In this document: positions 14,609-19,500 of the stretch, piece by piece
Layout: every line of letters starts with the position of its first letter
Position numbering within the stretch: position 1 is the stretch's first letter
Virus record (IMG/VR): IMGVR_UViG_3300027833_003138
Coordinates: 1 to 64,000 of that record
Strand: one strand, 5' to 3'
DNA: 64,000 nucleotides
Origin: a virus
The notes under the pieces: generated by a model
What the model saw: only the letters and a program-made list of their open reading frames with translations
What the model was told of the DNA's origin: nothing
The model's database searches: none
Made by a program: the position numbers and the translations under genes

Positions 14609-15007
14609 TCATAATACTGCTAATACTTGTTTGGGTTCTAGTCTTACGGCAATAGCATAGTCTACCATTTGTTCCGTGTCCTTGTCAACAAAATTCTCAT
14701 ACTTATATGGATTATAGGAAACAGGTCTTGCAGTGGGATGAGAATCTCTCCAATCGCCCATTTGCCAATTCTCTACATAGCCCTCGATTCCTGCGTGAAC
14801 ATTTTTACGCTGTTCTTTTAAAACTCTTTCTCGCCCACTTTTGCTAACCTTGAAAGTGCAACTATGCATTGCTAGTAATTTGGTATGAGCTTTAACTAAT
14901 CCGTCTTGCTTGATGCTCCAACATTTCTTGTGAAGATTCTTGTAAACAAAAACAGGACTACCAAAGTCAATCTTATATCTTTTTTCGTTAGGCTTTGTCT
15001 TGATCAT
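14609..15007 (-). CDS. Conserved phage hypothetical protein
   Basis: VYKNLHKKCWS, GRERVLKEQRKNVHA, YNPYK motifs; leaderless promoter. Confidence 0.8.
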   Translation of the reverse strand: MIKTKPNEKRYKIDFGSPVFVYKNLHKKCWSIKQDGLVKAHTKLLAMHSCTFKVSKSGRERVLKEQRKNVHAGIEGYVENWQMGDWRDSHPTARPVSYNPYKYENFVDKDTEQMVDYAIAVRLEPKQVLAVL

Positions 15008-15929: not shown

Positions 15930-16184
15930 TTATTGTGCAATGTGAAATACTTCTCTAAGCTTACTCATTTCATCTGATGCGAAGAATACTTCTCTGCAAT
16001 AGTCAATGTTTTTTGATTCAATATTATTAATGAGTTTCACTGCTTGATGAACAGGAACTCGATCACGAGGCATGCCTCCCCATTTGATTACGACTTTCAT
16101 ATGAGGAAAGTTGTCGTTGATTTCAGCAAGTTGAGCTGAGTTGATGTAACCGTAGTTTGTGAGAATTTGTTTAATCGTTTCCAT
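15930..16184 (-). CDS. Hypothetical protein
   Basis: Start reassigned to METIKQ; TTGACA-16-CATACT-7-ATG. Confidence 0.7.
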   Translation of the reverse strand: METIKQILTNYGYINSAQLAEINDNFPHMKVVIKWGGMPRDRVPVHQAVKLINNIESKNIDYCREVFFASDEMSKLREVFHIAQ

Positions 16185-16221
16185 AATATCTAGTATGACA
16201 GATCTGTGGGTATTGTCAAAC

Positions 16222-16258
16222 AAAAAACCCGACCAAAGTAATTTACCTTGATCGGGCT
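16222..16258 (-). terminator. Terminator after the structured RNA
   Basis: GCCCGATCAAGGTAA...TTACTTTGGTCGGGT then T-run. Confidence 0.75.
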
Positions 16259-16282
16259 TAACATGAATAATAATAAATAAAA

Positions 16283-16469
16283 TGGTGTGGGGAAGGATTA
16301 CTGTATACCTTCGACTTTTCGGCGTGAACATCAGTTCATAGAGTACCTACTTCGCACCACAAACGAGACTTGGAATTGTCTCTAGCTCATCCGATTGGAC
16401 TCTGCTAATCTACCACAGAAAGTTTGCGTACCTTAGCTCGCTCACGACAAGCTTGCTCAGTCACCCACA
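16283..16469 (-). ncRNA. About 187-nt structured RNA with acceptor-like stem and encoded CCA end
   Basis: 5' TGTGGG pairs with 3' CCCACA-CCA; internal hairpins GAGAC/GTCTC, TGAAC/GTTCA, GAAGG/CCTTC; own promoter, boxA-like site and terminator; no credible ORF. Confidence 0.7.
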
Positions 16470-16504
16470 GGAGAAGTATATCTACCTCTCCAAAGTTTTT
16501 AAAA

Positions 16505-16516
16505 TGTTAAAGATCG
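16505..16516 (-). promoter_or_regulatory. boxA-like antitermination site
   Basis: CGATCTTTAACA versus rrn boxA TGCTCTTTAACA, between the TTGACA-17-TATAAT promoter and the ncRNA. Confidence 0.55.
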
Positions 16517-16575
16517 ATTATTTATTTTGATTAAGTTTGTTTCTTAATTATGTATCTATTATACTCTATTATTTG

Positions 16576-19500
16576 TTATTTGTCAAGAACTTTTTTATTA
16601 TTTGATGTTCTATTTATTCTTAATAAGTCTTGTTGTATTTGATTGATATAATTGTATGTATTATTTGCATCAATTATTTTATTGTTTGGATATTTTGTGC
16701 AATGATAAAGATCATCAACAAATTCATTTAGCTTGGCGAGTTTAAGATAAACATATTCTTTTTCGGTCAACTCGTTTCTCAACTCAGACTCGCTTGCGAA
16801 CAAACCAACCTTTGGGGATAGCGACTTAATCATTAAATAAAAATTCCTTTCAATCTTAATCTTGCTCGGCTTGCTTCGACTCTTGCGATGCGAACTGCAT
16901 CTGCTTTTTGAGATAGTTTTGTTGAATAGTATATACTATCCTCGTCAACTGATCCATAATTCGCAAACTTACCTTGCTTATTCGCAGGTGTGTGTTTACC
17001 ACTTTTAATATCTGCCATTACTTGGCTCGCTCTCGCATTTTTCGCAATACTCATAATTTTATCTTTTTTTGTTTGTTGTTAAGCAATTATTGGTTTATGT
17101 ATTCTAGTATATCAGAATGTAATATATTGTCAAGTCTTTTTTTAAGAAACGAATCCGTATGTTGGTAAATCAAATTCATGATCGAACATTCCTACTTCGT
17201 CCCATCCATAGAGAATCAATGCTTGATCGAGATCATCTTTCATTAAATCTTTTCTGTCAATGACTGCGAGTTCGCTACCATTTGGTATCATGCCGTCAAC
17301 ATTTTTTATGTCAATCTCTTGAAATGTCATAGTACTTTTCCTCCGACTCTATATACTGACCATTGTTCTTCTCCTTGATAAGAAATGTATTGATCGTCAT
17401 TCTCTGCCCAATCAACTGCTCCTTTAAGTGAACGAAAATAAAGAGGCGATTCGCTCGGACTCGCATCATCTACTAACATATATACTCCTTCTGCGACATC
17501 GCATGGGTTGGCATTCTTTTCTTTTTCTGCTTGAGCTTGCCACTCAAGATATTCAATTTGTTCTTCGCAATAATTCATAACCCTAAGTATATCAGATTAG
17601 GATTTCTTGTCAAGCCTCTTTTTATTAAACTTGCTTTTTCCTCCGAATGCTCCTGTTGGAGTGGCGAGTCCTCCTTTGTGACCAACCATTCCTTTTCCGC
17701 TTTTCTTTTTTCCAACTAAGTATTTATTTTGATTCATATTTTATTAAATTTTGTTTGCGATTAACCTGTATGCTTTATCTACTGCAAGAGACATTAATGT
17801 TAAAAGTGTTACTGCTCCTACGCAACTTACTATTGAATGTATTATTTCGTATATCATATTGTATAATTTATTTTGTATAATTAAGTGTTTATTTGAGTTG
17901 TATTGTTTTGCCTTTTATATCATGCAATTGTATTGTTTATTTAGTATATTGTATTGTATAAGAGTATATACTATATTTGTGCATCTTATATCATGCAAAA
18001 ATTTGTTTATTTATTTCTTAATATTTGGGCGATCAACATTAGTGTTTTATTTAAATCAGATAATTCTTTTCTTATATCATCCGAGTAACCATTAGATATT
18101 GATATTTGTTCTTTAACTCTTTCTAATTCTTTAGCAATTTCGTTCATATTTAATAGTATGGCAGATTATTTGGCGATTGTCAAGAACTAATTTTGCTCAC
18201 CGCGACTTTATTTAAAAATTTATACTATTAACTATTATTATTTGATGTAAATATTTGTACGATTAAATTCGGGCGAGTCAGTCCACATTCCTTTGGCATA
18301 TTTGCCGTTATTTGTCTTGAGATTGATTGTCTCGTATAAATGTTTCAACATTGCCTTGTCATCTTTGCTTTGTTTATTTGATGTTTTATTTTTTGCAATT
18401 ACTTTATTAATATCATCTAATATATAATCAATTTCTCTTCTTATGTGCATGGTTTATATGTTTTTGTTTTTTAATTTTATTAAATATTCTTTTAAATTGC
18501 GAGCTTCTATAAATGCTCTATCTATATTATCATTCTCTATGTGAAAAGATAAACTCTCATTGCTTGTGATTACTGCTTCTGTTTCTTCATCACTAAACGA
18601 CATAATATTTTGTTCAATTAATTGTATTATTTCATATGATAAATGCAATACATCATCATCATTATATTTATTTGTCATCGTTTACTATATCATTTAATAA
18701 TTGTAATGTATATTTAGCTTCCCACAATGCTTTTTGTCTTTCGCCTAATTCCATGTAAAAATTCATGCTACTATTGCAGAGATTTATGGTTTCGGCATCA
18801 TCGGTCGTTAGCTTTCCAATCTTTGTATTGAATATTTCTATTATTTCGGCACTTATCTTTTGTAATTCATCCATTTTTTTGTGCAATTAAGTTTCGGCTT
18901 ATTATTTATTTTTTATTTTGTTGATCTGAATTTAAGTATCCTCTTTTATTTCACTGCTTGGGGGAAAATGAGGTAGGCTTTCGAGTATTTTTTTTATTTC
19001 TTCCTCGCTTATCGTTGGGGGATTAACATTTTTGTCGCTCGATTGTTCGTTGTCTATGTTTTCTTCTGTCATAATATACTATATACTATACAATACAATA
19101 CAAGCGATGTCAAGAATAAATGAGAATAATTAGTAATAAATCAAAAATATTATTAACTATTGTAAATTATTATTAATCTCTAGTAATGATTGGAAAGCCG
19201 TGAGAATTACGAACAATTGATTGCTTCTTCGGCAATTCGCTCGACATCAACCTCTTGATCCGCAGAACTTGATAAAATATTTTGTTCAATAAACCTCTCG
19301 TTATCAGCACTAATTGTATTAATTTTTTCATGTAATTGAGTTATTTTACTTTGTATTTCTTGTATTGTATTAATATCTTCTATATTTGTAAGGCAATGAT
19401 CTACTAATTTTCTTAAACAATAATCTAATGTAGATGAATAACAAACTAAATGCCACTTATATTCTACTTTATTTGATGTAATATTTTGTGCGATTCCGCC

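Follow-up and report, generated by a model that had tools for sequence, protein, structure and literature searches.

A structured RNA that lies in a phage genome between a promoter and a terminator of its own raises the question of whether it is a switch for the gene that follows or an RNA gene in its own right. The locus considered here lies in the first 64 kilobases (kb) of the 140,314-bp virus record IMGVR_UViG_3300027833_003138; this stretch is called the window below, and all locus coordinates are given on its minus strand. The RNA, at 16282..16491, is a divergent member of the manA family (Rfam RF01745) and not a new RNA class. We put at about 70% the probability of the reading favored by the sequence comparisons, namely, that in an uncultured marine phage the region encodes this manA RNA as an early transcript that stands alone and is not translated.

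Family membership is settled by a search of Rfam 15 with cmscan. The RNA matches the manA model over its entire length (model positions 1-192 of 192) and scores 71.4 bits (E = 3.4e-16), where the gathering score is 55.2, and a search of the whole 140,314-bp record gives the same match and only this one copy. The preliminary description of the locus could not assign a family and had named an Rfam match beforehand as the finding that would remove the novelty of the RNA. This Infernal-type scan produced such a match, and because it is full-length and to a catalogued family, the claim of a new class falls. The window RNA has the same P0, closing helix and multi-helix junction as the manA motif; the words GUGACUGA and GGUAUACAGUAAUCC are common to both and lie 155 nucleotides (nt) apart in the window RNA, a manA-like spacing, and both RNAs come from marine phage. 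The differences are also clear. The window RNA scores 71 bits against 170-181 for the classical cyanophage copies, its peripheral helices differ (two of those in the Rfam model are poorly matched, as seen from the NC marks), and it comes with a boxA-like leader of about 60 nt, a terminator of its own and a promoter before the next gene. Weinberg et al. (2010) described manA as a 5' untranslated region (5' UTR) element and a cis-regulatory riboswitch candidate (PMC2864571), and Rfam types the family as Cis-reg. The 5' UTR position is not what is found in the window, where a terminator and a promoter-like site precede the next open reading frame (ORF). This departure touches the role assumed for the family, not the sequence and structure that define it.

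The elements of the locus, in reading order, are as follows.

16576, minus strand: stop codon of an ORF of 85 amino acids (aa), the end of which is the first element in reading order and overlaps the promoter.
16586..16558, minus strand: sigma-70-type promoter TTGACA-17-TATAAT, 12 matches out of 12.
16547..16531, minus strand: small leader hairpin TTAAG-AAACAAA-CTTAA, in a boxB-like position, kept in 26 of 31 related leaders.
Between the small hairpin and the boxA-like word, minus strand: A-rich spacer.
16516..16505, minus strand: boxA-like element CGATCTTTAACA, 10 of 11 positions of the published consensus.
16282..16491, minus strand: manA RNA (Rfam RF01745, from cmscan), divergent subtype, made of P0, closing helix and multi-helix core.
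16491..16470, minus strand: P0 hairpin GGAGAGG...CUUCUCC.
16469..16464 and 16291..16286, minus strand: closing helix TGTGGG/CCCACA, which encloses several hairpins.
16445..16446, minus strand: two loop bases (CG) of the helix-4 hairpin, covarying with 16323-16324.
16323..16324, minus strand: dinucleotide immediately 3' to the UGAAC/GUUCA hairpin, the counterpart of 16445-16446.
16285..16283, minus strand: CCA directly after the closing helix; 187 nt from the first base of the helix through CCA.
Between CCA and the terminator, minus strand: AT-rich spacer of 23 nt.
16218..16259, minus strand: intrinsic terminator (terminator scan), a GC-rich hairpin at 16259..16225 with a folding free energy (ΔG) of -20.3 kcal/mol, followed by a T-run.
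16219..16192, minus strand: promoter-like site TTGACA-16-CATACT (TG-extended), 10 matches out of 12, fused to the T-run of the terminator; it would serve the next gene.
15930..16184, minus strand: conserved 84-aa ORF, the usual neighbor on the downstream side, with its ATG at 16184, 7 nt after the -10 box; context, outside the RNA.

Host RNA polymerase would start near 16551 and stop near 16218, both positions being predicted from the signals, and the resulting transcript of about 330 nt might be trimmed later. Much of this arrangement had been recognized in the preliminary description: the perfect promoter is present, the boxA-like word, the leader hairpin GGAGA...TCTCC and the terminator all lie on the minus strand where they had been placed, and the RNA with TGTGGG/CCCACA ends followed by CCA is indeed 187 nt long.

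The fold itself was examined alone and in comparison with relatives. The minimum free energy (MFE) of the single sequence is -67.2 kcal/mol (z = -2.41), a value equaled by 2 of 200 dinucleotide shuffles. To gather homologues, viral contigs were searched for the conserved 15-mer GGTATACAGTAATCC, and the 40 loci that also had GUGACUGA at the correct distance were retained (individual loci are given below by numbers preceded by L). For 14 non-identical close relatives, the consensus fold from RNAalifold contains 55 pairs, of which 18 show compensatory changes. The helices proposed from the single sequence, GCAAAC/GTTTGT, TCC-AATC-GGA, GAGAC/GTCTC, TGAAC/GTTCA and GAAGG/CCTTC, are all part of this fold, and most are part of the Rfam consensus. 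A covariance model built from the 14 relatives yielded 58 matches in the collected loci, and the 53 distinct sequences among the homologues were used for the covariation check that the preliminary description had called for. Paired cells amount to 94.4%, compared to 38-48% when the 3' partners are slid, and both sides change at 39 of the 55 pairs; none of 500 shuffles reaches the observed values. The alignment was fitted to the model and hence favors the structure; the margin is nonetheless large. Covariation thus supports the consensus architecture of manA, with P0, the closing helix and the nested multi-helix junction, in RNAs of the window type. A further proposal, an AGAGT/ACTCT pseudoknot, did not hold up in the comparison: 56% of the cells pair, below the shuffle mean of 62%, with the first arm fixed and the second drifting.

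The homologues fall into two subtypes. Scores against our own model are bimodal, with 35 full-length copies at 143-266 bits and 18 copies at 41-58 bits, and the Rfam model reverses the order, giving 170-181 bits to the classical copies and 71-87 to the window type. About 35 marine viral contigs carry the divergent manA subtype of the window. The settings of the two differ as well. In classical copies the promoter lies directly before P0, and the 3' end (...CCUCCCCCCUUUU) is followed after about 40 nt by a Shine-Dalgarno (SD) sequence and an ATG, while a terminator is lacking; the whole corresponds to the 5' UTR arrangement of the 2010 description (PMC2864571). Window-type copies have a long leader before the RNA and a terminator after it. 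When a hairpin with a ΔG of -8 kcal/mol or lower and a T-run within 170 nt are required, a terminator is found in 22 of 28 distinct downstream contexts of the window type, as opposed to 0 of 13 classical manA contexts. In two more loci (L105 and L113) an additional ORF-free element, about 190 nt long, separates the RNA from its terminator, and these raise the total to 24 of 28. The ΔG of these terminators ranges from -12 to -31 kcal/mol, and the stem sequence is different in each context; since the stems share no sequence, it is the function of the terminator that is conserved and not the word. In most window-type loci a TTGACA lies within a few bases of the T-run, and the -10 box is found 6-7 nt before the ATG of the 84-aa gene. 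Such a short gap suggests that the mRNA of this gene is leaderless.

The upstream side is no less regular. Across 31 distinct related contexts, a promoter (counted at 10 matches out of 12 or better) is present in 31, the boxA-like word in 30 and the small hairpin in 26, and the three keep one order throughout. The stem of the small hairpin occurs in compensatory variants (TTGAG/CTCAA, TTAAG/CTTAA, TCGAG/CTCGA). Loci found via the boxA word are biased for that word; in the unbiased set, to which only the manA core had led, 13 of 14 loci carry it. Where inserts of 50-200 nt are present, they sit between the boxA-like word and P0, and the word stays beside the promoter and hairpin. The order of elements is thus conserved in this subtype: the promoter comes first, then the small hairpin and an A-rich spacer, the boxA-like word, the manA fold with an intrinsic terminator behind it, and finally the next promoter. 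The proposal of a boxA-containing transcription unit of its own is borne out by the conservation of the promoter, leader and terminator layout in relatives. We consider this unit, which has the support of comparative evidence, to be the informative point of the locus, since it does not conform to manA as published, a 5' UTR element.

The inserts deserve mention in themselves. Extra ORF-free and apparently structured segments lie between boxA and P0 in L002, L008, L029, L041, L071, L074, L075, L092, L099, L107 and L109, and between manA and the terminator, within the same transcription unit, in L105 and L113; overall, their sizes range from 50 to 190 nt. No Rfam family was matched in these extra inserts of the relatives.

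Two other explanations of the RNA as a whole must be weighed against a free-standing manA transcript. The preliminary description saw in it a tRNA mimic, with an acceptor-like end carrying CCA, that might be aminoacylated or serve as a decoy for anticodon nucleases. The window sequence does have CCA after the closing helix and a hairpin adjoining the 3' strand of that helix, features reminiscent of tRNA, transfer-messenger RNA (tmRNA) and viral tRNA-like structures, and there are tRNA genes elsewhere in the window. However, ARAGORN, which finds those three tRNAs, detects no tRNA or tmRNA at the manA locus, and a permissive cmscan run (16150-16650, E up to 10) returns manA and noise, with no tRNA, tmRNA or tRNA-like structure family. 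CCA follows the closing helix in 10 of 31 window-type RNAs and in 0 of 17 classical ones, the others having UCU, CCU, CUA and other triplets. The loop of the hairpin said to be in the T-arm position is an invariant 11-mer, UAUACAGUAAU, and not a UUCRA T-loop (the absence of TTCRA had been correctly noted from the start); neither a cloverleaf nor an anticodon-like arm is present. In addition, the terminator lies about 60 nt beyond CCA in the window, and the primary transcript is predicted to extend to it. With the detectors negative, CCA not conserved and the T-loop missing, the tRNA mimic was rejected as extremely improbable. The second explanation takes the classification of manA in Rfam and in Weinberg et al. 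(2010) at its word: the fold would sense a ligand and, acting in cis as a riboswitch, set termination at 16259-16218 and thereby control read-through into the 84-aa gene. In its favor, classical copies lie directly before SD and ATG, the same 84-aa gene (protein beginning METIKQILTNYGY...) comes next in most related loci (L008, L041, L048, L049, L053, L080, L082, L107-L109, L111, L113, L114 and others), and in three or four relatives an ORF lies 11-22 nt 3' of the RNA. But in most loci a promoter stands between the terminator and the gene, and its -10 box, at only 6-7 nt from the ATG, implies that the 84-aa gene has its own, probably leaderless, transcript. Between fold and terminator lies a spacer whose length ranges from 9 to 178 nt and which may include an extra domain. 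Moreover, no competing antiterminator was found when, in 24 loci, the 5' half of the terminator stem was searched for its best duplex with the segment made up of the final 50 nt of the fold and the spacer: the best duplexes have -4 to -15 kcal/mol compared to -13 to -31 for the terminators, their mean z relative to shuffles is -0.9 (-0.6 in the window), with 3 of 24 loci below -2, and all 24 full-length MFE structures leave the terminator intact. A long boxA-type leader is foreign to riboswitches, and no ligand for manA is reported in the literature found. The antiterminator, spacer and promoter data argue against control in cis, although the predictions are compatible with some read-through, and we regard the riboswitch explanation as quite unlikely.

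The leader word calls for a separate judgment. The published boxA consensus, GYTCTTTAANA, is gamma-proteobacterial; C4 and T6 are needed for recruitment of Nus factors, mutation of these bases abolished boxA function in Escherichia coli, and the authors state that their search left out non-coding RNAs (PMC5725501). The window word GATCTTTAACA matches 10 of 11 positions of this consensus, which may not be that of the host; three relatives (L026, L041 and L053) carry GTTCTTTAATA, with 11 of 11, and others have 9-10. The arrangement resembles the antitermination leader of ribosomal RNA (rrn) operons, whose cis elements are given in one account (PMC10250234) as boxB, boxA and boxC and which works with NusB, NusE, NusA and NusG as well as SuhB: in both, a hairpin and then a boxA-like word lie in an untranslated leader, upstream of a structured RNA that has to pair its 5' end with its 3' end. 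The window unit differs in being about 330 nt long instead of 5 kb, in having no identified boxC, and in the A at position 2 of the word. An alternative is that the word is not a boxA but a phage-specific site for processing or for protein binding, such as a cut site that frees the mature manA RNA, and that the likeness to rrn leaders is an AT-rich coincidence. This would agree with the 2.7 11-mers within one mismatch that are expected per window by chance, with the departure from consensus at position 2 in most copies, and with the TTTTACA variants, which are off consensus at two positions. It accounts less well for the perfect consensus match in three relatives, for the invariant core TCTTT, which includes the very C4 and T6 identified by mutation in E. 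coli (PMC5725501), and for the order of hairpin and boxA in an untranslated leader, which mirrors that of rrn operons (PMC10250234). A site of this other kind seems to us possible, if doubtful, and the boxA reading of the word has, on sequence grounds, about even odds or slightly better. A search of marine bacterial genomes found the boxA pattern to be as frequent as its reversed control.

A similar site was seen elsewhere. An identical 17-mer, GATCTTTAACATTTTAA, directly follows a GC-rich hairpin (TGACCGCAGGGGCCTTCGGTCA) in unrelated viral contigs, mostly of about 40-60 kb, with no manA downstream (L078, L084, L086-L088, L096, L097, L102-L104, L106 and L112). It could be another boxB/boxA-like site or coding sequence.

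Several observations weigh against a free-standing manA transcript with a boxA leader. A small branch of the window subtype (L027, L074 and L077) lacks a strong terminator, and L076 has only a weak one; in L027 and L074 an ORF (MxxIKKDE...KIAAIKYTYDYVKL) begins 11-22 nt after the RNA, as it would behind a 5' UTR, so that some copies or lineages may possibly act in cis. The 84-aa gene is strongly syntenic with the RNA, which could point to a functional connection. As to the leader, position 2 of the window word is A where the consensus has Y, and the boxA 11-mer is found twice in the window at one mismatch or less, not above the 2.7 expected. With the count in a single window at chance level, the weight of the word comes only from its conservation in relatives, and this conservation shows that the leader matters, not that it binds Nus factors. 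Finally, the oligomers described for manA RNAs (see below) were obtained in vitro with other members of the family that have other peripheral helices, a comparison made here by description.

Apart from its helices, the subtype has contacts between loops. In helix 4 the loop opens with two bases (GA, CG or UG) that are without exception complementary to two bases (UC, CG or CA) just 3' of the UGAAC/GUUCA hairpin. In a scan of unpaired columns of the alignment designated A2, columns 64-65 pair with columns 218-219 in 62 of 62 cells, with pair types CG/GC/UA and GC/AU; 23 of the 62 do so through changes on both sides, a result reached by 0 of 500 shuffles, and slid controls pair in 16-66%. This contact, explained by no helix, may be tertiary or intermolecular and is best taken as a lead, as it involves two columns and few lineages; covariation does not separate an intramolecular pseudoknot from an intermolecular kissing contact. 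Pairing between a GUGGY loop and an RCCA loop, probably the one annotated 'pseudoknot?' in Rfam, appears to have moderate support: inspection by eye shows C with G in 5 of 5 cases, all five GUGGC sequences having UGCC, whereas the window has a U.U mismatch and the aligned count, with gaps uneven in the loops, is no better than in shuffles. The P0 loop (16470-16491; A2 columns 9-38) occurs in three forms in the subtype: a GACG tetraloop as in classical manA, CUUAUAA, and UAGAUAUA or AGAUAU. The window has the last form, with the palindromic AUAU or GAUAUC, and CUUAUAA contains the palindrome UUAUAA. Such self-complementary P0 loops could mediate self-kissing. A pairing of leader and trailer in the window, TTAACAT/ATGTTAA, is not common to the relatives and was judged to be due to chance.

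Contacts of this kind are of interest in light of a recent preprint (Ren et al. 2026; bioRxiv 10.64898/2026.07.01.735769) reporting that manA RNAs self-assemble through kissing loops into pentamer-based decamers and a 60-mer cage. Two sets of variants are described there that share the conserved core and have different peripheral helices; the work is in vitro and gives no biological role. The window RNA belongs to the same Rfam family, and its subtype has a covarying loop contact outside the helices. By analogy with the family members studied by cryo-electron microscopy, it would most likely form a homo-oligomer through loop-loop contacts, and it would act in trans and not on the neighboring gene. 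The boxA-like leader would recruit the host NusB/NusE complex, as in rRNA operons, and so protect the untranslated transcript from Rho; the Nus complex could also hold the 5' end near the polymerase, aiding formation of the long-range closing helix and of the complex fold. The combined proposal, that the subtype builds RNA-only multimers or cages in the infected cell and is transcribed and folded by way of host rRNA-type Nus antitermination through the boxA leader, is speculative, and we think it rather unlikely to be correct in full.

The locus sits in the genome of an uncultured marine phage that measures at least 140 kb and has no close isolate; the nearest cultured relatives are below 45% identity. 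The record has 36% GC, and the window encodes rIIA, rIIB and an ATP-dependent DNA ligase. The best cultured match of the ligase is in Caulobacter phage Cr30 (42% identity), followed by roseophages; matches of rIIA are under 30% identity, and 1.8 kb around the locus gave no DNA-level match in the phage collection. With these genes and identities, the phage is not one of the known T4-like cyanophages. No manA copy in a bacterial genome was found among the 15-mer matches listed, once these had been filtered by the second core word. The whole genome has 20 minus-strand and 3 plus-strand sigma-70 promoters that come close to consensus (11 matches out of 12 or better), and many of them lie in an early region of short ORFs (window 10515-43171, minus strand). 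The 84-aa protein and the neighboring small proteins matched no Pfam or PHROG family. A 132-aa ORF at 14609-15007 (minus strand) belongs to Pfam PF25735, the Mycobacterium phage L5 gp82 family (E = 2e-33), and also matches phrog_586.

For 16 years manA has been filed as a candidate riboswitch found in 5' UTRs. Here, and in about 35 related marine viral contigs, it appears as a self-contained gene with an rRNA-like leader and a terminator, a stand-alone setting that is easier to reconcile with an RNA acting in trans or as a structure than with a gene switch and that agrees with the 2026 report of self-assembly. If multimers are indeed made in the infected cell under Nus control, the locus would be the first known case of a phage gene for a non-coding RNA that relies on rrn-style antitermination, and would provide a biological setting for the manA cages seen in vitro.

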